Source: a virus
Taxonomy: Duplodnaviria; Heunggongvirae; Uroviricota; Caudoviricetes
IMG/VR virus record: IMGVR_UViG_2671180603_000001
DNA length: 13,077 nucleotides
Direction: 5' to 3' (one strand)
The notes under the pieces were generated by a model. It was not told where the DNA came from. It saw only the letters and a list, made by a program, of their open reading frames with translations, and ran no database searches. The position numbers were made by a program, and so were the translations under genes. This document shows, piece after piece, positions 6,050 through 13,077 of the stretch; within the stretch, counting starts at the first letter, position 1, and every line of letters starts with the position of its first letter.

Positions 6050-8956
6050 TTAATACTCCGTCACGTTTTCCTGTCGCCACGCCTCGTCATATTCCGATTT
6101 CGGCATATTGGCGATGTAGCTATATGGCGATCCTGATTCAAGTTGCAGGAACTGGTGCGATTGCTCGTCAAGGAACAACGGAACACCACCTTCCCAGCCT
6201 TCGCCGTTACGTTGTTTTTCAAGCATCAAAACAGATGCAGGAGACGCCAGTAGCTGTTCGTCCTTCTCTGACATCTTTTCACCACTCTGAACTCTCTGTA
6301 ACGCTCTCTCGCGAGCCTTGTTACGCCAGATGATGAAAAGGTTGTCTGTCAGGTCTGTTATCGCTCCAGAGCCTTTCACGTCCATTTTCCCGGTTGGTTT
6401 TTCTTCGCTGTCTCCTTTTCTGGAGTGAGTAACGAGAATGACGTGGGAGTTTGTTTTGTTTTTGAAGTCACAAATCGAGTCAACAAACGCTTTCTGCCCG
6501 TTATAGTCATCGTCACCTATGCCGCATTTCATCAGGCTGTCGATAATGAATAACTGGATGCCGTATCGGCGGCGAGCGTAGTCGAATATTTCGATCAGCC
6601 TGTCGGCTTTCGCCGTTCCGGTCAGGCCAAACACCCAAAGTCTTTCGTCATAAAATTTAAATGCAGAGTCAATTTCCAGCACTGGCGGCATCTTGCAGCA
6701 CGTTGCCTGACGGGTAAGTCGCTTAAGGAGAATACCAGGCTTCAGCTCAAGTGACGCGATGCACGTCTTCACACCCTGACGCATTGCCTCAAGTGCCATA
6801 TGCCCGACAACCTCGGTGTTATGCGTCGCCACATATCCCCTGGTTACATACAGGTGGCGAGGGTGATCGACCATAATACACAAGCATTCTGCATTGCCGA
6901 TTTTTTCAACATTCCTGACGAATACCCCACAGCCCTCGAATCGATGCGCAGTTAATCTGCCATTGAGTCGTGGTGAACGGATGGCCTCCCTGATTTCTCT
7001 TGTCAGTCTGATTCTTGCCTCGTATGAATCCATCCCATGCCGCTTATCGTCCTTGTATGTGTATGTCACGCCAGTTTTAACTCGCGTCCGGCATGACCCG
7101 CCGAGTGAGTTAACCAGTTGAACAACCCCATTGCGCAGTTTTTCACTTGCTGAGGAAAAAACAAGCGTTCCATCCTTCTCGACATACCCATCCGTTTCAA
7201 GCAGACCACACAGCATGCCTATACGCGTTGATTTATTTGCGGAAAAAAACACACGAGGGATGAATTTGTTTTTTGCTGTGCACCCCATTAGTCCATAACC
7301 TCGCAGGGTCTCCATGAGTGGATTTACCTGACCACGCGCCGTTGATATCAGCCAGTCCTTACCATCTCCAGAGAAGTTGTAATCAGGCAGTTCAGCCTTC
7401 ATACGCTCGATCATGTATGGCTCGACGTTTGAAAACTTCACGCTCCCATTGCTAAGACTACCATCCCCGAGAAGGGAGCCGATAACCCATGCTAATGGCT
7501 CTGAGTGGTCGCCAAAGTCACCAGTTATTTCAGGAATCCTAACGCCATTTTTGTGCCTCTTCGTTTCACTCAACCGCTTCAACCCGAAGGTATCTATCAC
7601 GCGGCGTTTCTCGCCTTTCGTGAATCCACGACTAGTGACCTCCCATAGGTGATCGCCTGCGCAATCAACATAACGACCATCTTCAAATGTGACTCGGTAA
7701 ACATCTCTAACACCCTGCGGGAATATCCCAGTGACAGTTGACGGATTGCCGTCTACTGACGCCACCTGATCGCCAATTTTTACATTCCCGTGAGTAGTCC
7801 ATGTCCCATCAGCTAAAAGAATAGGCTCATTCAGTGGGCATGCCTTTCCGTGACCGTTCACACCATTGACCAGCGTCAACTCTGCCTCACGGAACTGGAA
7901 TTTATCTGCCAGAGATTCCCACGGTGGATTAAACAGATACTGCTGCTTGCCGTAGAAAGCGTTGATAGTGTCCTGGTAAAACTCGCGCGCGCTGTAGAGT
8001 TCTTCAGGATCGAAGTAGGATGCCGTGCCGATGTACTGCCAGATTTCATCCTCGGTAACACCGTTCATCAGGCATTCGTTGATGTCTTTGTACGGCAGAG
8101 TAACAAGACGGCAACGATGTTCACCGAGTCGGCTTGCGATTTCCCTTGCGGCTTCACGACCAACATCATCAACGTCCATCGAGATGAATATTTCCTCAAA
8201 CCTGTCGAGGTTGTGATACTCAAACTCAATCCACTGTTGCTTAGCGCCTTTCCCGCCACCAAACGGCACGGATAACGCCGAGATGCCGTATTGCGCATAG
8301 CTCATACAATCAATTTCGCCTTCGCAAAGCACAACCGCCCTCACGCCAGCGTCCAGAGCCTGCCATCCGAACAGGCAAGGTTCGCAATCACCTTCTGCCA
8401 TAATGACTTTCTTCCCGTCCGGGCGCTCAGTGCTGATTCGCTTGACCTGCAACAACTCACCATCGCGTTTGTACGGAAGCACCAGAGCATCCAGTTCTCG
8501 TTCTCCATTCCACACCTTGCCGCTGACAACCTCGTAGCGCTTTACGACTTCTGGCGATATGCCACGCGATTGCAGGTACTCAAGATGGGATTCTGTTCTG
8601 GTAACGTAGTGGGCGATTTTCTTGCGATCAGGTCTGGAGAATTTCTTCTCACGTCTGGCATCGAAATGGTGATCGTCATCCTTGATACCGAGAAATGCTT
8701 TCGCTTCCTGCATAGCCTGATGCAGGTTAATTCCACGACATGCCATCCACAAATCAAGCATGTCACCGCCGTCTCCCTCAGCGAAATCAGCCCATTTTTT
8801 CTTACCGCTAAGGTTGACCTTAAGGCTGTTTCCCTTGTCACCGTTGACGTTACCGGCAACCCACTCATGCCCCTCTTTCTTGCCGTTTGGCAACAGGTGC
8901 GGAGCCACCCTGTCAACCTGCGCCCAAAGCAGGTCGCTAAGTTCTGATGGACTCAT
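6050..8956 (-). CDS. bifunctional Toprim primase - SF4 (T7 gp4/DnaB-like) helicase, intein-containing
   Basis: 968-aa ORF. Toprim motifs at residues 200-265 (VVLCEGEIDCMS, SMDVDDVG). Helicase motifs in the C-terminal part (Walker A GVNGHGKA.T split by the intein, Walker B QLFIIDSLMK, then ILVTHSRKG and KGSGAITDLTDNLFII, which parallel T7 gp4 H2-H4 as I recall them). Confidence 0.8.
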   Translation of the reverse strand: MSPSELSDLLWAQVDRVAPHLLPNGKKEGHEWVAGNVNGDKGNSLKVNLSGKKKWADFAEGDGGDMLDLWMACRGINLHQAMQEAKAFLGIKDDDHHFDARREKKFSRPDRKKIAHYVTRTESHLEYLQSRGISPEVVKRYEVVSGKVWNGERELDALVLPYKRDGELLQVKRISTERPDGKKVIMAEGDCEPCLFGWQALDAGVRAVVLCEGEIDCMSYAQYGISALSVPFGGGKGAKQQWIEFEYHNLDRFEEIFISMDVDDVGREAAREIASRLGEHRCRLVTLPYKDINECLMNGVTEDEIWQYIGTASYFDPEELYSAREFYQDTINAFYGKQQYLFNPPWESLADKFQFREAELTLVNGVNGHGKACPLNEPILLADGTWTTHGNVKIGDQVASVDGNPSTVTGIFPQGVRDVYRVTFEDGRYVDCAGDHLWEVTSRGFTKGEKRRVIDTFGLKRLSETKRHKNGVRIPEITGDFGDHSEPLAWVIGSLLGDGSLSNGSVKFSNVEPYMIERMKAELPDYNFSGDGKDWLISTARGQVNPLMETLRGYGLMGCTAKNKFIPRVFFSANKSTRIGMLCGLLETDGYVEKDGTLVFSSASEKLRNGVVQLVNSLGGSCRTRVKTGVTYTYKDDKRHGMDSYEARIRLTREIREAIRSPRLNGRLTAHRFEGCGVFVRNVEKIGNAECLCIMVDHPRHLYVTRGYVATHNTEVVGHMALEAMRQGVKTCIASLELKPGILLKRLTRQATCCKMPPVLEIDSAFKFYDERLWVFGLTGTAKADRLIEIFDYARRRYGIQLFIIDSLMKCGIGDDDYNGQKAFVDSICDFKNKTNSHVILVTHSRKGDSEEKPTGKMDVKGSGAITDLTDNLFIIWRNKARERALQRVQSGEKMSEKDEQLLASPASVLMLEKQRNGEGWEGGVPLFLDEQSHQFLQLESGSPYSYIANMPKSEYDEAWRQENVTEY
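6818..7840 (-). mobile_element. intein with LAGLIDADG homing-endonuclease domain (residues 373-713 of the primase-helicase)
   Basis: Starts with Cys373 in a block-A-like context (CPLNEPILLADGTW...VKIGDQVASVDG, similar in pattern to the Sce VMA intein start). Ends ...YVATHN followed by Thr714, the canonical HN plus nucleophile. Two LAGLIDADG-like motifs inside (WVIGSLLGDGS at 490-500, GMLCGLLETDGYV at 580-592). Boundary codons checked on the DNA. Confidence 0.75.
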
Positions 8957-9183: not shown

Positions 9184-9915
9184 TCACCTGTCGAAAAACA
9201 CGTAGCCAGTTTTCGATACGGTAATTGCGGATGATGGTCTGGATTGTGGTTGAATGGTTTCTGGCTTCTCGTCGTTCCAGCGCTGACCGTTCAGGTAGCT
9301 CGACGGTAACAACCTGTCGAATCCGAACTGCTTACCATTCCTGCATGCGATGTCTTCTGCCAGCATCGTGGCAAACTCGCTTGCCGTACCCCTGGTAGTT
9401 TTACGCCATTCCCTGAACTGTGTTCTGAATGCCGAAGCTGCGTTTTTCTTCCCGGCTTTCCGCATGCCTGCACACCAGAATATTTCCTCGAATGCCTTGT
9501 CGGTTTCTTCGTGACGGTCAGGAGTTTTTTCACACTCCGTTCGGACATGTTCGAACATAATGTTTTTAGGTTCATTGACTGGTTCAAAAGAGTGATAGGT
9601 TCTGGGGGCAGCTCCTGCCCCACCCCCTAGGGCAGCTCCTGCCTGTGCATTATCCAGCGTCAGATAAAAAACGTTTGACTGGTTAAGCTCTCCTTTTCTT
9701 CTGCATTCCCTTTTCAAAAGCCCCATCTCTTCCAGTGCCCTAATGTGACTTTTTACTGTCGATCTGCTCACCTCACACTGGTCAGCGACATGTTGATATG
9801 AAGGCCAGCATTCGCCATTATCATTGGCGTTATCGGCAAGTTTAATCAGAATCAGTTTTCTCAGTGGGTTGCCAACCTTTATATTCATGGCCTTAGCCAT
9901 AAGATTCATGCTCAT
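9184..9915 (-). CDS. phage replication initiator with N-terminal winged-helix/HTH domain
   Basis: 243-aa ORF with an N-terminal HTH-like domain (LADNANDNGECWPSYQHVADQCEVSRSTVKSHIRALEEMGLL), a Gly/Ala-rich linker and a basic C-terminal half. Occupies the lambda O position upstream of the helicase. GGAGAA Shine-Dalgarno. Confidence 0.7.
   Translation of the reverse strand: MSMNLMAKAMNIKVGNPLRKLILIKLADNANDNGECWPSYQHVADQCEVSRSTVKSHIRALEEMGLLKRECRRKGELNQSNVFYLTLDNAQAGAALGGGAGAAPRTYHSFEPVNEPKNIMFEHVRTECEKTPDRHEETDKAFEEIFWCAGMRKAGKKNAASAFRTQFREWRKTTRGTASEFATMLAEDIACRNGKQFGFDRLLPSSYLNGQRWNDEKPETIQPQSRPSSAITVSKTGYVFFDR
9575..9684. repeat. iteron-like direct repeats inside the initiator gene (candidate origin)
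   Basis: Exact 10-mer TTGACTGGTT at 9575-9584 and 9675-9684, exactly 100 bp apart. Between them GGGCAGCTCCTGCC occurs twice (9606-9619, 9630-9643; 24-bp period), followed by an A-rich tract (9662-9670). The 12-bp palindrome ATGTTCGAACAT lies just upstream (9547-9558). Confidence 0.4.
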
Positions 9916-10055
9916 TTTGACTTCTCCGAAGTTTTGTACCTGTTAAGTATTTCTCTCAGTGGCACAGCTATTTCTGGATTAACCCCCTGATAAAACTGGT
10001 CACGTAGCACATCTTTTCGGTGATTAACGCGTTTATTTTCCTGCGTTTTTCGCAT
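9912..10055 (-). CDS. small hypothetical protein (47 aa) between cII and the initiator
   Basis: ATG at 10053-10055 with GAGG 8 nt upstream; its stop overlaps the initiator start in ATGA. The longer track ORF (to 10223) overlaps cII out of frame and is unlikely. Confidence 0.35.
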   Translation of the reverse strand: MRKTQENKRVNHRKDVLRDQFYQGVNPEIAVPLREILNRYKTSEKSK

Positions 10056-10066
10056 ATAATTACCTC

Positions 10067-10134
10067 GTTGGATGTTGTTAAAATTCCATTTGTATTTGAT
10101 CAGAACGCTCGGTCTTGCACACCGGGCGTTTTTT
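10067..10134 (+). ncRNA. oop: oop-like antisense RNA with promoter and terminator
   Basis: Consensus -10 TATAAT at 10055-10060. Intrinsic terminator at 10106-10134 (CGCTCGG-N9-CCGGGCG with one G-U pair, then TTTTTT) lies antisense within the cII 3-prime end, the same arrangement as lambda oop. Predicted RNA about 68 nt. Confidence 0.45.
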
Positions 10135-10377
10135 ATTGGTGAGTCCATCAAGCGCATACTTAAAAGCCCTGCTAATCGGACTGATGTCTGATGCCATTCC
10201 GAAAGCACACAAGACCGAAGCAATAAACCTCCAGTCCGTTCTGCTTATCTTCGATTCATGACAGCCAATCATCTTTGCCAGACCGCGCTGGGTAAGCGTT
10301 GACAGGTTGATGAGTAAATCTGTTTCTGCACGATCAACGTCGCGCTGTGATAGTTTGCTGTAACTTGTTTGTTCCAT
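10078..10377 (-). CDS. cII: transcriptional activator CII
   Basis: 99-aa ORF whose C-terminal half matches my memory of lambda CII (ILTNKKRPAATERSEQIQMEF versus LTNKKRPVCKTERSDQIQMEF here). HTH in the middle. Confidence 0.85.
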   Translation of the reverse strand: MEQTSYSKLSQRDVDRAETDLLINLSTLTQRGLAKMIGCHESKISRTDWRFIASVLCAFGMASDISPISRAFKYALDGLTNKKRPVCKTERSDQIQMEF

Positions 10378-10462
10378 TTCTTAAGATTTCCAATAGTGAA
10401 TAGTTAGTTGAAAGCTATGCGTGGAAACGCATATGGCCTTAGTTGGTCAGATATCTTGGGGC

Positions 10463-10509
10463 TCGCTTTGTCAGCGACGTAGGACGAATGCCCATTGTGA
10501 AAATAGCGG
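10463..10509 (-). promoter_or_regulatory. nutR-like site (boxA plus boxB hairpin)
   Basis: Minus-strand transcript carries CGCTATTTT (boxA-like, about 10500-10509) and the hairpin TCGCT-GACAA-AGCGA (10463-10477), whose GACAA loop matches the P22-type boxB as I recall it. Lies between cro and cII. An 18-bp palindrome TATGCGT-GGAA-ACGCATA at 10416-10433 may be part of a tR1-like region. Confidence 0.4.
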
Positions 10510-10515
10510 TGTTAC

Positions 10516-10740
10516 TTATGCTGCCTGATTCGGTTTTGGAAACAGGTGTGGTAAATCTGGGCGAATTTCGTAAGCCTTGATCTGCCCTCCAGTGGCGTTA
10601 ACGATGGCGGTAACTTTCTCTGGAGAAACCTGCCCGCCTTTCAGCCATTTGTGTACTGCTGGCTGCGTTACACCACACTTGTCGGCAAGCCGCTTTTGAC
10701 TACCGACAATCTTCAAGGCTCGTTGAATTACTAAATTCAT
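10516..10740 (-). CDS. cro: Cro-like HTH repressor
   Basis: 74 aa from the ATG at 10740 (AGAGGT Shine-Dalgarno 7 nt upstream; track ORF extends to 10761). HTH segment QKRLADKCGVTQPAVHKWL. Divergent from the cI-like gene. Confidence 0.7.
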   Translation of the reverse strand: MNLVIQRALKIVGSQKRLADKCGVTQPAVHKWLKGGQVSPEKVTAIVNATGGQIKAYEIRPDLPHLFPKPNQAA

Positions 10741-10761
10741 GAGCATACCTCTTTCAGCCAT

Positions 10762-10851
10762 TACTTATAACCAAGGATAACTCAAGTTATAAAAGATAGC
10801 AATAACCTTTATTATTTTACTTTGGATAACCGTAGTTATAGATTTGTGGAT
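10762..10851. promoter_or_regulatory. right operator region with divergent promoters for cro and cI
   Basis: Three 14-bp sites of form ATAAC-N4-GTTAT at 24-25 bp spacing: 10777-10790 (ATAACTCAAGTTAT), 10802-10815 (ATAACCTTTATTAT, imperfect), 10826-10839 (ATAACCGTAGTTAT). Candidate cI promoter: TTTTAC (10815-10820) and TATAGA (10837-10842), which would give a near-leaderless cI mRNA. Candidate cro promoter -10 TATAAG on the minus strand (10764-10769). Confidence 0.5.
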
Positions 10852-11559
10852 ATGAAAACATTCGCAGAAAGACTAAATGCAGCCATGAGATCGGCAGGGG
10901 TGTCGCAATCACAGCTTGCGGACATGGTTGGAATATCTCAGCCAGCCATACAGAAGATGTCATCCGGTAAAACAAACGGATCTCGCAAGATGGTTGAGTT
11001 AGCTAATGCTTTAAAAGTACGCCCTGAATGGCTTAGTTCTGGTATTGGTGAAATGAGGGATGGTACACATGAAGAACCATCCAATATCCGTGAGTCATCT
11101 TTAAAAGCTGTGGTATGGGAAGACATTAAAAAAAACGATGACGAGTTTGTCGCATTGCCTCTTCTTAACGTTTCGCTTTCGGCTGGAAGCGGTAGCTGCG
11201 AGATAGAAGAATCATCAGAGTTCTCTTTGGTTTTCAGAAAGTACTATCTGAAAAAGATGGGGGTAACTGAAAGTTCTGCCAAGCTGGTAAGGGTAACAGG
11301 TCAAAGCATGGAACCAACTCTTCACGATGGCGATGTTGTTGGTGTTAACACACAAGATACCACCATCAGAGATGGTAAAACCTACGCTATTTGCCAGTCT
11401 GATTTGTTGCGAGTAAAAACATTAATCGCCACTCCTACATCGGTGATAATCAGATCAATAAATCGCGAAGAGTACCCGGATGAAGTAATGGATAGAGATG
11501 AATTTCATAAAACCGTAAGGATTATTGGCAGAGTATTCTGGTCATCGCATAGCTGGTAA
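10852..11559 (+). CDS. cI: CI-type prophage repressor (HTH plus S24 LexA-like autopeptidase domain)
   Basis: 235 aa from the ATG at 10852 (track ORF begins at TTG 10822). N-terminal HTH (QSQLADMVGISQPAIQKM); C-terminal S24 motifs (Ala-Gly site in LSAGSG, GQSMEP serine motif, downstream Lys in LLRVKTL). Confidence 0.85.
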   Translation: MKTFAERLNAAMRSAGVSQSQLADMVGISQPAIQKMSSGKTNGSRKMVELANALKVRPEWLSSGIGEMRDGTHEEPSNIRESSLKAVVWEDIKKNDDEFVALPLLNVSLSAGSGSCEIEESSEFSLVFRKYYLKKMGVTESSAKLVRVTGQSMEPTLHDGDVVGVNTQDTTIRDGKTYAICQSDLLRVKTLIATPTSVIIRSINREEYPDEVMDRDEFHKTVRIIGRVFWSSHSW

Positions 11560-11596
11560 CCAGTGGCCTGAAGAAACGTTTGGGTGAGGAGGATAG

Positions 11597-11938
11597 ATGG
11601 CGTTCACTGACCTTGAATATCAAGCGGTCAAAAAAGAAGTTCACCAATTCATTGAAAGCATAAGGCCGCCTGAACATATCCGCAATGAACTGGATATTGT
11701 TTATAGCATCAATGACCAAACGATAGATATCGGCGAACAGCGCCCCGTGTGGCAGGGCAACCCAGGTGAAACAAACATCCTGCCATCAGCAAGAATCAAG
11801 TACATACGTTCTCTGGATAGATGGAAAATCTATTGGATGCGGAAGGATATGAAATGGCATCAGTACAGTACTGAACTTTCGCTGACTGATGCGCTTGAGC
11901 TTGTGCGTGCTGACCCGGATTGCTGCTTCTTCGGATGA
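11597..11938 (+). CDS. hypothetical protein, 113 aa, in the rexA-equivalent slot
   Basis: Consensus GAGGAGG Shine-Dalgarno (11586-11592) 4 nt before the ATG, 38 nt after the cI stop with no terminator between, so probably co-transcribed with cI. Contains WxxYWMRKDxKWHxY and a terminal CCFFG. I cannot assign a family. Confidence 0.7.
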   Translation: MAFTDLEYQAVKKEVHQFIESIRPPEHIRNELDIVYSINDQTIDIGEQRPVWQGNPGETNILPSARIKYIRSLDRWKIYWMRKDMKWHQYSTELSLTDALELVRADPDCCFFG

Positions 11939-12100
11939 GTGAAGAGACATTTTGGTGATGGATGGTCGCAGAAGTGCGGCCTTTAATGTAATCGAAGAAA
12001 AGTAATCCTTGTAAAACTTGATTTGACTGTATTGTCACAAAGAAAGGAATCAACGATCGTTTCTTGGGTCTTGATTTGTTTTGACGATCAAATTAGTATT

Positions 12101-12127
12101 GCCTCATCAACTGTATGAGGCTTTTTT
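12101..12127 (+). terminator. rho-independent terminator abutting the next start codon
   Basis: GCCTCAT-CAACTGT-ATGAGGC (7-bp stem) followed by TTTTTT, then directly the ATG at 12128. The 3-prime arm contains GAGG, the only Shine-Dalgarno-like element for the 177-aa gene. Confidence 0.65.
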
Positions 12128-12661
12128 ATGCAAACCAAAAGCTACACCATCAAAGCATTTCAGGACTTCTTACAGATGCTTCCTGAGCTTGGTATCGTCA
12201 ATGATGCTACAGCCCGCAATCTCCGTGACTCTTCCCTGCGCCTTCTTACTGTTCTTGGGTCGGATTTCACCGATGCCGATATCCGTGATTATAGCGTTGC
12301 CAACTTAGCAAGTTCGTACGCAGACTCAGCAGAAAGCAAACCCTCTGAATCATCTTTGCAGGCATACAAAAGCCGGATGCAAAGTGCTATTGATAAATTT
12401 ATCTCCTACCAGAATGGTGAGATTAATGTGTCAGTTGGTGATGTAAATAAAAAAAAGCAGCGTAAAAAGATGGCACCTAAGAAGAAGGCGGTAACTGACG
12501 TACAGGTTGGTGTAAAAACATTTGAACTGCCGATTCCATTGCGCGGAGATCTTATCGTCACCATTGGCAACCTGCCTCGCGACCTGACAAAAGATGAAGC
12601 CAAGCGTATCAGTCTGATTGTGGAATCTTTTGCTATGATTGATGGCGGAACAAAAGAATAA
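12128..12661 (+). CDS. hypothetical protein, 177 aa, with Lys-rich linker
   Basis: Long ORF with a clear stop, bracketed by terminators on both sides. About 100-aa N-terminal domain, a highly basic linker (NKKKQRKKMAPKKK) and about 50-aa C-terminal domain. No family recognised. Confidence 0.65.
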   Translation: MQTKSYTIKAFQDFLQMLPELGIVNDATARNLRDSSLRLLTVLGSDFTDADIRDYSVANLASSYADSAESKPSESSLQAYKSRMQSAIDKFISYQNGEINVSVGDVNKKKQRKKMAPKKKAVTDVQVGVKTFELPIPLRGDLIVTIGNLPRDLTKDEAKRISLIVESFAMIDGGTKE

Positions 12662-12662
12662 A

Positions 12663-12684
12663 GCCCCGCGGCAACGGGGCTTTT
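12663..12684 (+). terminator. terminator-like hairpin after the 177-aa gene
   Basis: GCCCCG-CGGCAA-CGGGGC followed by TTTT, immediately after the TAA stop. Confidence 0.5.
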
Positions 12685-12834
12685 GGGGTCGGAAATATTT
12701 CCAGTATTTCCGAAGTGTATGGAGGATTACCTACCGCTACACCCTTGGCAACCGCAAGCCAAGGATAGCGGTTCTCCCAACAAACTACAACCTGTTCGGG
12801 TAAACAGGCTGTATACAAAAACAGGAGAAAAGCT

Positions 12835-12969
12835 ATGGCTCACGATGTTAATCGCGATGACTTCATCTACGAACACGACAAGCCGGTTTATGTGCGCAGT
12901 TACTGCCGCATACGTTTCGGTGAGCTCGAACATGTTCGTCAGCACTTCCGCTCTTATCCGAGCTGCTGA
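12835..12969 (+). CDS. small hypothetical protein (44 aa)
   Basis: ATG preceded at 6 nt by AGGAGA. Translation MAHDVNRDDFIYEHDKPVYVRSYCRIRFGELEHVRQHFRSYPSC (Cys/His-containing). Too short for the ORF track; followed by a terminator. Confidence 0.45.
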   Translation: MAHDVNRDDFIYEHDKPVYVRSYCRIRFGELEHVRQHFRSYPSC

Positions 12970-12986
12970 AAATAACTAAATCTCAA

Positions 12987-13013
12987 ACCCGGCTTCCGCG
13001 CCGGGTTTTCTTT
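12987..13013 (+). terminator. rho-independent terminator
   Basis: ACCCGGC-TTCCGC-GCCGGGT hairpin followed by TTTTCTTT, after the 44-aa ORF. Confidence 0.6.
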
Positions 13014-13077
13014 GCCTCGCGATCGTCCCCCATATTTAAATAGCTGCGCTTAATACCGCTACACTTTTGCCAGCCCA

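Follow-up and report, generated by a model that had tools for sequence, protein, structure and literature searches.

What does a Shiga toxin (Stx)-type prophage carry between its repressor gene, cI, and the promoter pL, and do the genes found there form one unit? The question is raised by a 13,077-nucleotide stretch of viral DNA (IMG/VR record IMGVR_UViG_2671180603_000001; hereafter the window, meaning the whole stretch analysed), which is the early region of a 933W/Stx-type lambdoid prophage and in which three small genes, here called genes 1, 2 and 3, follow cI. In lambda, rexAB lies between cI and pL, and the slot is an established accessory site with protective cargo, as in the case of rexAB, the 933W kinase Stk, which excludes HK97, and BstA in BTP1. 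The original prediction, made from the letters of the window, had put the three genes forward as a candidate for an undescribed exclusion or defence module. Our analysis points elsewhere: we judge it probable, with some reserve, that the 1.4 kb from cI to OL/pL is a mosaic in which two cargo units, each mobile on its own, share a known accessory slot, gene 1 being one and genes 2 and 3 the other. In Stx-type prophages this is the slot in which pathogenic E. coli and Shigella lysogens carry genes that alter their behaviour towards other phages.

Separable units in the cI-to-pL slot

The three open reading frames (ORFs), at 11597-11938, 12128-12661 and 12835-12969, are where they had been called, all on the plus strand, and RefSeq annotates the same three in related prophages. 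The nearest complete relatives are a prophage of E. coli FDAARGOS_944 (locus L001; 99.6% identity across the region) and phage SH2026Stx1 (L002; 96.5%); other labelled loci are 933W (L003), VT2-Sakai (L004), SE1 (L005) and a Yersinia prophage (L016). Gene order in the relatives is cI, gene 1, gene 2, gene 3, OL/pL and N, which bears out, in L001 and L002, the proposal that the genes occupy the place held by rexAB in lambda. The pL/N region had been expected further to the right, and so it is: OL/pL, with ATAACCTAGGTTAT, followed by N, lies 100-450 bp past the gene-3 terminator in relatives. In L001 the terminator is followed by TTGACC-N17-TATCTT overlapping ATAACCTAGGTTAT and then by N, and in SH2026Stx1 the start of N is ~450 bp past gene 3. 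OL/pL and N are missing from the window because the end of an IS630-family element (13037-13077), where the contig ends, interrupts the prophage at ~13037, just before OL/pL. These final 41 bases match IS630-family ends or transposase loci in 200 E. coli genomes at 100%, and homology of the window to L001 and L002 ends at ~13040; IS630 insertion right after the gene-3 terminator is probably the reason for the contig end.

Comparison across related prophages, which had been proposed as a check on whether the genes co-occur, divides them into two units. Among 5426 complete E. coli genomes, 227 have gene 1, and 221 of these lack genes 2 and 3. The latter two are found in six of the 5426, each of which also has gene 1, and the trio is kept in SH2026Stx1, in these six complete genomes and in about a dozen viral contigs. 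At least three further contexts contain genes 2 and 3 as a pair but neither cI nor gene 1. The order in E. coli and Shigella is cI-gene1-[cassette]-pL. In Salmonella-type loci the gene 2-3 cassette follows a dinI homologue that has a perfect LexA box, with tail-fibre genes and pepN close by; in Raoultella-type (Raoultella/Klebsiella) elements it adjoins SSB and D5-type primase genes; and in Enterobacter integrative elements it has an AAA_25 replication gene on one side and capsid genes on the other.

That the slot holds lysogen-expressed cargo in other prophages, as had been assumed, agrees with what we find there: L0084-L0083/res-stk-L0081 in 933W and phi24B, a BstA-domain gene in Yersinia and a ParA-like gene in SE1. 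The Pfam BstA_C gene of Yersinia fits the idea of protective cargo in this position. Yersinia lambdoid prophages carry a lone gene-2 homologue in the cI-N slot, directly after a KilA-N/BstA_C gene in two of six loci. In one Yersinia pseudotuberculosis prophage (L016, 3899-4829) the slot holds the KilA-N/BstA_C gene and a 43-aa ORF, then the gene-2 homologue, and in two sibling prophages (L017 and L018) the homologue comes straight after cI.

Gene 1 and the lysogenic state

The first cargo gene (11597-11938, plus strand) encodes a 113-aa protein. The three proteins had been said to resemble no nameable family; this stands as far as Rex is concerned, which none of them matches, but gene 1 is a DUF3024 gene (Pfam PF11225; E = 2.4e-31, 108.7 bits against a cutoff of 24.9, residues 4-113). 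It also matches PADLOC PDC-S43 over positions 1-115 of 115 (E = 7.2e-42) and belongs to phrog_3467. It is the same gene as 933W L0084, to which it is 98% identical, and phi24B vb_24B_13c, whose record cites pfam11225. Gene 1 is thus a further member of a known, catalogued candidate family, and the description "undescribed" does not apply to it. The PADLOC PDCs are 145 candidates picked for homologues embedded in BREX, DISARM or type I restriction-modification (RM) loci (PADLOC source paper); DUF3024 has no mention in the literature that we searched. The idea of a defence candidate gains independent backing for gene 1 through its listing as PDC-S43, but not for genes 2 and 3, which have no meaningful PADLOC match.

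Several features tie gene 1 to cI. Its Shine-Dalgarno sequence, GAGGAGG (11586-11592, plus strand), as read from the sequence, stands 4 nt before the ATG, and a scan found no plus-strand terminator between the cI stop (11559) and gene 1. In 933W and phi24B, the gene next to cI is L0084 or vb_24B_13c, respectively, and the annotation places it with cI in one unit running from pRM to tRM, cI-L0084-L0083/res-stk-L0081. In phi24B, products of two genes downstream of cI were seen on two-dimensional polyacrylamide gel electrophoresis and were restricted to lysogens, with transcript levels above that of cI (PMC3342100). The same group later tied two genes, vb_24B_13c and res, to the lysogenic state, and vb_24B_13c was unchanged upon norfloxacin induction (0.65-fold, against 1.23 for cI and 1.81 for stk; PMC4651098). 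These expression data were obtained on the 98%-identical phi24B homologue rather than on the window's prophage. Given the Shine-Dalgarno sequence, the terminator-free junction and the phi24B homologue, gene 1 is very probably co-transcribed with cI from pRM, as had been suggested; it would then be made in every lysogen. A weak hairpin with a poor U-tract follows gene 1 (11964-11981, plus strand; -12.1 kcal/mol, z = -2.1).

The protein is small and acidic. Its AlphaFold2 (AF2) model (predicted local distance difference test score, pLDDT, 87.7) consists of a helix, a five-stranded sheet and a helix (alpha-beta5-alpha), and a BFVD fold search with it returned no match at E <= 0.001. Searches of PDB sequences with gene 1 and with the gene-2 profiles gave nothing meaningful, the matches to AvrPto and RPN8 being weak and non-homologous. 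Gene 1 has no catalytic motif and no membrane segment, and we take it that it must therefore act through binding a partner. The ratio of nonsynonymous to synonymous substitution rates (dN/dS) of ~0.15 indicates purifying selection.

Gene 1 is found before res-stk in 933W and phi24B, before a ParA-like gene in the P22-like phage SE1, and as a frameshifted remnant in VT2-Sakai. In Erwinia, a homologue lies in a dinI ... DUF3024-L0083-like-Stk block far from any cI. In Erwinia aphidicola (L021, 3033-6130) the 933W cargo block consists of DUF3024, an L0083-like gene, the Stk kinase gene and a 47-aa ORF; it adjoins tail genes, downstream of a LexA-boxed dinI (24.5 bits), an 80-aa ORF and a DUF333 gene. 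The presence of the 933W cargo block behind dinI in Erwinia suggests that the cI-pL slot and the dinI/tail-fibre slot exchange the same cargo. We regard gene 1 as most likely a lysogen-expressed protective or conversion factor. Its identity as DUF3024/PDC-S43 connects a defence candidate with published lysogenic-state evidence on a near-identical gene and makes it a well-motivated target for phage challenge.

A modular gene and a microprotein behind tandem LexA-type boxes

Gene 2 (12128-12661, plus strand) encodes a 177-aa protein with an N-terminal four-helix domain, the Lys-rich linker noticed in the original prediction (NKKKQRKKMAPKKK; isoelectric point, pI, 10.5) and a near-invariant C-terminal motif, F-x-LPIPLR...NLP-x-DLT-xx-EA-x-RI. 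In the AF2 model, residues 1-100 form a four-helix bundle with good confidence, and the linker is disordered. The bundle has the fold of the core-binding (SAM-like) domain of tyrosine recombinases: the likenesses listed are IntI4, Brujita Int, XerA, the lambda Int core-binding domain and XerH, with MrpR and SroF lower down, and weak matches to the Phage_int_SAM hidden Markov model (HMM) were obtained for four of 42 distant family members. Pfam found no catalytic domain (Phage_integrase, RHRY active site), and residues 101-177 are linker and a 45-residue motif. The N-terminal domain is acidic (pI 4.7), the linker being the one basic part; binding of DNA by the protein is plausible on its modelled fold. 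Conservation is markedly modular: compared with the window protein, the N-terminal domain has a mean identity of 48%, down to 22%, and the C-terminal 42 residues a mean of 88%.

A word-indexed search alone had suggested a small enterobacterial family, whereas an exhaustive profile search gave 1122 clusters (50% identity) at E <= 1e-3; among the best 150 of the 1122, nearly all members are 160-200 aa and match the full profile length. The family is under purifying selection (dN/dS 0.13-0.17), carries the function-free label phrog_2602 and has no meaningful match in Pfam, NCBIfam or PADLOC, the last also when searched with 42 family members. It is thus an unannotated family, present in prophages, satellite-like elements and islands. 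A 63-aa ORF that corresponds to its C-terminal domain is annotated on >900 contigs, mostly of Shigella and Salmonella, and has a PHROG of its own (phrog_36396); in three loci (L039-L041) the tblastn match to gene 2 ends after ~120 codons (4001-4360). This may reflect decay of many copies or production of the C-terminal domain on its own from the internal Met114.

As had been noted, gene 2 is bracketed by hairpins with U-runs, at 12101-12127 and 12660-12683. The first, GCCTCAT...ATGAGGC (12101-12121) plus T6, is on the plus strand and abuts the gene-2 ATG (-10.1 kcal/mol, z = -3.2); its 3' arm includes the gene-2 Shine-Dalgarno sequence GAGG, and Salmonella and Yersinia loci have an equivalent hairpin. 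Just upstream is a promoter-like sequence, TTGATT-N17-TAGTAT (12071-12099, plus strand), which we infer to be the gene-2 promoter; the Salmonella-type and Yersinia loci share TTGATT-N17-TAnnAT with the window, equally far from the start codon. The hairpin would terminate cI/gene-1 transcripts and insulate gene 2, whose own transcript would start ~7 nt past the -10, inside the 5' arm. With a start there, the hairpin could stop transcripts from cI and gene 1 and yet not form in gene-2 mRNA. Two exact copies of CTTGATTTG (12017-12025 and 12070-12078) lie 53 nt apart in this region, the second overlapping the -35-like hexamer; we rejected them as an operator, since the motif is not statistically enriched in the window. 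Similar TTGATT/GATCTTG repeats do stand upstream of homologues and could be an operator. The hairpin after gene 2 (12660-12683) is bidirectional and terminator-like, with a short U-tract here that is weak or absent in several variants, so that read-through from gene 2 is possible.

Gene 3 (12835-12969, plus strand; phrog_21154) encodes a 44-aa hydrophilic microprotein (grand average of hydropathicity, GRAVY, -0.90; no hydrophobic stretch). It had been described as a Cys/His ORF with a strong Shine-Dalgarno sequence and its own terminator. Both signals hold up: AGGAG (12823-12827) stands 7 nt before the ATG, and a 9-bp stem at 12985-13014 (plus strand; -15.8 kcal/mol, z = -3.4) is followed by UUUUCUUU as an intrinsic terminator. 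The Cys/His character is incidental, since C44 is replaced in the Raoultella-type variant (ending ..PVR) and H33 is Asn in most variants; a zinc finger was discarded on these non-conserved putative ligands and the lack of a Pfam match. NCBIfam and PADLOC likewise gave no meaningful match, tblastn against 50,697 phage records returned gene 3's own three records alone, and a protein search gave a single cluster. This is essentially one 90%-identity cluster, spread over Escherichia/Shigella, Salmonella, Klebsiella, Citrobacter, Raoultella and Cedecea, and a dN/dS of 0.05-0.09 indicates purifying selection.

Between genes 2 and 3 lies a structured leader (12689-12791, plus strand), made up of hairpin H1 (12689-12713) and a second hairpin region; all 12 of 12 sequence variants fold into equivalent hairpins despite their differing sequence, with some compensatory pairs. 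It is followed by tandem LexA-type boxes (12792-12824): CTGTTCGGGTAAACAG at 12792-12807 and CTGTATACAAAAACAG at 12809-12824, the second overlapping the gene-3 Shine-Dalgarno sequence by 2 nt. CTGT-N8-ACAG has just these two matches in the window (0.12 expected). On a position weight matrix (PWM) built from 24 E. coli LexA sites, which give 11.4-26.5 bits when scored leave-one-out, box 2 reaches 17.2 bits; elsewhere in the window no unrelated site exceeds 8.5, and a score of 17.2 bits was attained in 20 of 1000 shuffles of the 13-kb sequence. Every one of the 12-13 distinct leader variants, which come from at least four genera and precede two different microproteins, keeps the boxes in the same place, with variable inner eight bases. 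From the tandem boxes we predict that gene 3 is silent in healthy lysogens and turned on upon DNA damage. It is thus probably SOS-induced, going by its upstream sequence, rather than expressed constitutively in lysogens as the single-module proposal implied. Were SOS control to hold, genes 2 and 3 would be a new DNA-damage-responsive accessory unit, with a microprotein that couples prophage cargo to the host SOS response.

The pairing of gene 2 with such a microprotein is widespread. In 42 of 50 surveyed loci with a gene-2 homologue, a LexA-type box and a 44-46 aa ORF lie 140-165 nt past the gene-2 stop; eight loci depart from this, six of them from Yersinia, the others being VT2-Sakai and a truncated one. 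The microprotein appears to be exchangeable, two unrelated types being found behind the same leader and operators: in Enterobacter the gene-3 position holds an unrelated, zinc-ribbon-like ORF of 44-46 aa (MANGICPKCGNAC...) that gene callers overlooked. An Enterobacter-type ORF, MANGICPKCGNACEVIFRPYKRNPDGTLSYPKRAKVFAIPVCNC (L013, 5636-5800; also L014, L015 and L046-L052), has a weak treble-clef zinc-finger match, the same leader and LexA-type boxes upstream, and its own terminator. That the linkage has outlasted gene-2 divergence of 39-100% and the replacement of one microprotein by another speaks for a joint function of gene 2 and the SOS-boxed microprotein.

How the two might cooperate can be sketched. 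Insulated by the hairpin plus T6, gene 2 would be transcribed from its own promoter and its protein would act in the uninduced cell through the variable specificity domain; the microprotein, made upon SOS induction, would modify or release it. A repressor/antirepressor-type switch of this sort is our leading guess for the pair. We put forward more tentatively, as a possibility rather than an expectation, that the cassette is a hitherto undescribed, widespread SOS-gated two-component system in which a LexA-repressed ~44-aa microprotein switches a modular protein with a variable specificity domain of the recombinase core-binding kind and a constant C-terminal effector/interaction motif. If so, it would give prophages, satellites and islands a DNA damage-triggered function, such as an anti-phage/abortive one or control of induction between elements.

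Several observations weigh against these proposals. The AF2 model of the gene-2 C-terminal domain is of low confidence. The promoter-like motif upstream of gene 2 has 8 of 12 matches and falls below the scan threshold, the scan found no canonical sigma-70 promoter in 10400-13077, and none could be placed for gene 3 on either strand, by scan or by eye. LexA box 1 is poor (7.5 bits), and the make-up of the 24-site PWM is a limitation. Finally, neither a LexA box nor an intact microprotein gene accompanies the gene-2 homologues of Yersinia and Sakai, and gene 2 can therefore occur without gene 3.

Other explanations have to be set beside these. That the three genes are one lysogen-expressed, rexAB-like exclusion or defence module, as the original prediction had it, would suit their contiguity and shared orientation in the cI-to-pL slot, the conservation of the trio in several genomes, and the presence of defence-type genes in the slot elsewhere (933W stk and the Yersinia BstA-domain gene). 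It is nonetheless very improbable, being largely refuted by the distribution of gene 1 without genes 2 and 3 and of these without cI or gene 1 in three other contexts; in addition, a hairpin and T6 part gene 1 from gene 2, gene 3 stands behind LexA boxes, and the proteins have no membrane segment and no likeness to Rex or to any PADLOC multi-gene system. Gene 1 could instead have no part in defence and serve the lysogeny switch as an accessory, modulating for instance cI or its RecA-stimulated cleavage. Its position would speak for this, as it nearly always comes first behind a cI of S24 type, with different cI alleles and in different genera (933W, phi24B, SE1 and the window), and so would the report that the homologue's transcript is more abundant than that of cI (PMC3342100). 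We consider it unlikely all the same: the Erwinia copy lies in a dinI-stk block away from any cI, a distant member lies beside metabolic genes on a short metagenome contig, and PDC-S43 was derived from genes that lie within BREX, DISARM or type I RM loci.

For gene 3, LexA boxes directly upstream of a very small ORF recall the SOS-induced antirepressors Gifsy GfoA/GftA, 186 Tum and N15 AntC. Acting in the same way, gene 3 would counter the non-cleavable repressor of another resident prophage, gene 2 being a mere neighbour or its own regulator. LexA-controlled antirepressors do act in trans between prophages (PMC3121763), and the Salmonella cassette comes right after a dinI homologue with a perfect LexA box, the place of the Gifsy antirepressors. 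Yet gene 3 has no similarity to phage proteins outside its own cluster, its 44 aa fall short of the antirepressors of PMC3121763 (about half of the 146-aa Tum), and the cI of the host prophage is of the self-cleaving S24 type and needs no antirepressor; nor would this role explain the tight, long-range linkage to gene 2, and we give it a small but real chance. Specific Gifsy counterparts were rejected, in that tblastn against Gifsy-type phage records gave no similarity of gene 2 to IrsA or of gene 3 to a Gifsy antirepressor, and the gap between dinI and gene 2 in the Salmonella locus, just 147 bp, has no room for a GfoA-type gene. Improbable, too, is an SOS-induced toxic or growth-arresting peptide (an abortive-infection effector or an inhibitor of division or replication) with gene 2 as modulator or antidote. 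Tandem LexA operators are typical of genes that are harmful when leaky, such as those of colicins, and the strong Shine-Dalgarno sequence, the separate terminator, the extreme conservation (dN/dS 0.05-0.09) and a structured leader that could add post-transcriptional control would all fit. Against it stand the hydrophilic nature of the peptide, which sets it apart from TisB and DinQ, two SOS toxins that act on membranes; the Rfam scan of 10000-13077, which picked up neither an antisense RNA nor a known family but sub-threshold RsmY noise alone; and the Enterobacter loci, which hold the unrelated zinc-ribbon-like microprotein in the gene-3 slot. The mosaic of two cargo units, with genes 2 and 3 as a functional pair, thus remains our preferred reading.

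The wider early region and known systems

The cI repressor gene (10852-11559, plus strand), the first gene of the predicted pRM transcript, encodes a LexA-like, self-cleaving protein with HTH_3 (2.6e-07) and Peptidase_S24 (3.9e-18) Pfam matches; RefSeq chose the ATG equivalent to 10852 for the identical gene in L001. Between it and cro (10516-10761, minus strand) lies the operator region OR (10777-10839), with three ATAAC-N4-GTTAT sites at 10777-10790, 10802-10815 (one mismatch) and 10826-10839. Such sites are confined to OR in the window (0.3 expected by chance), in keeping with the earlier statement that none lies before its right end. In its right-to-left listing the early region comprises Q and two tRNAs, antirepressor genes, a Gp49/HTH pair, ninB, ninE, a primase-helicase gene, cII (10078-10377, minus strand) and cro.

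The Q antiterminator gene is at 533-1156 (minus strand), and downstream of it are tRNA-Thr(TGT) and tRNA-Asn(GTT) (117-272, minus strand), a place, ahead of the toxin and late genes, in which Stx phages keep tRNAs. At 3849-4425 (plus strand), within the nin region, a Gp49-like toxin gene (RelE/ParE/HigB type) overlaps an HTH_3 antitoxin gene, the equivalents of which RefSeq names RelE/ParE toxin and HigA antitoxin. A 968-aa replication protein of the toprim primase/AAA_25 helicase type (6050-8956, minus strand) is split by an intein with Hom_end-associated Hint (residues 379-424) and LAGLIDADG_3 (579-634) domains. A helix-turn-helix (HTH) replication-initiator gene, intact in the window at 9184-9915, is split in L001 by a copy of the IS110-family element ISEc20 (6313-8516), and the FDAARGOS_944 prophage is therefore also defective. 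A LexA-like site, TACTGGATCAATCCACAGGA (12-15 bits on the PWM), is conserved at the boundary of cII and the replication genes in SH2026Stx1 (5591-5610), 933W (1966-1985), VT2-Sakai (1049-1068), SE1 (1499-1518) and Yersinia prophages (L016, 2365-2384); it is missing from the window, whose replication module differs.

Of the systems that we compared, one is the pRM operon of 933W and phi24B (cI-L0084-L0083(res)-stk-L0081-tM), which shares with the window the slot, the orientation and a first cargo gene that is 98% identical, and whose cargo is expressed with cI in lysogens. In 933W the DUF3024 gene is followed by a RuvC-like gene, the Stk kinase gene and a 54-aa ORF, whereas in the window the gene 2-3 cassette stands instead, past a terminator-like hairpin. 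The likeness to lambda rexA-rexB lies in the place between cI and pL and in co-orientation with cI. RexB is a polytopic membrane protein, whereas none of the window's three has a membrane segment (maximum over a 19-residue Kyte-Doolittle window <=0.81 in all three); Pfam, PHROGs, NCBIfam and PADLOC showed no sequence similarity, and two of the three genes are probably off the cI transcript. Like the morons described by Hendrix, the promoter-gene-terminator inserts of lambdoid phages, the units are self-contained, stand between genes that are adjacent in related phages, are flanked by hairpins and occur in several unrelated contexts. They differ in that their promoters are predicted ones, there is no clear contrast in composition (GC 44-51%, against 47% for the window), and an SOS operator on the second gene is not a general moron feature.

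With tyrosine recombinases, and with MrpR of SPbeta and SroF of phi3T, gene 2 has in common a core-binding-like domain, with weak Phage_int_SAM matches in distant members; it differs in having no catalytic domain, in the acidity of the domain and in a C-terminal motif that has no recombinase counterpart. The LexA-controlled antirepressor loci, namely Gifsy dinI-gfoA/gftA-irsA, 186 tum and N15 antC (PMC3121763), share with gene 3 a small ORF directly behind one or more LexA operators, and the Salmonella cassette, like the Gifsy locus, has tail-fibre genes nearby and a LexA-boxed dinI homologue in front. Their sequences show no similarity, the window's microprotein has only 44 aa, and those loci lack the modular protein of 160-200 aa that always accompanies microproteins of the window type. 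Within the libraries searched, the gene 2-3 cassette, with its modular architecture, exchangeable microprotein and conserved tandem LexA boxes, is new, standing beside a gene 1 that 933W and phi24B already carry in the same place.

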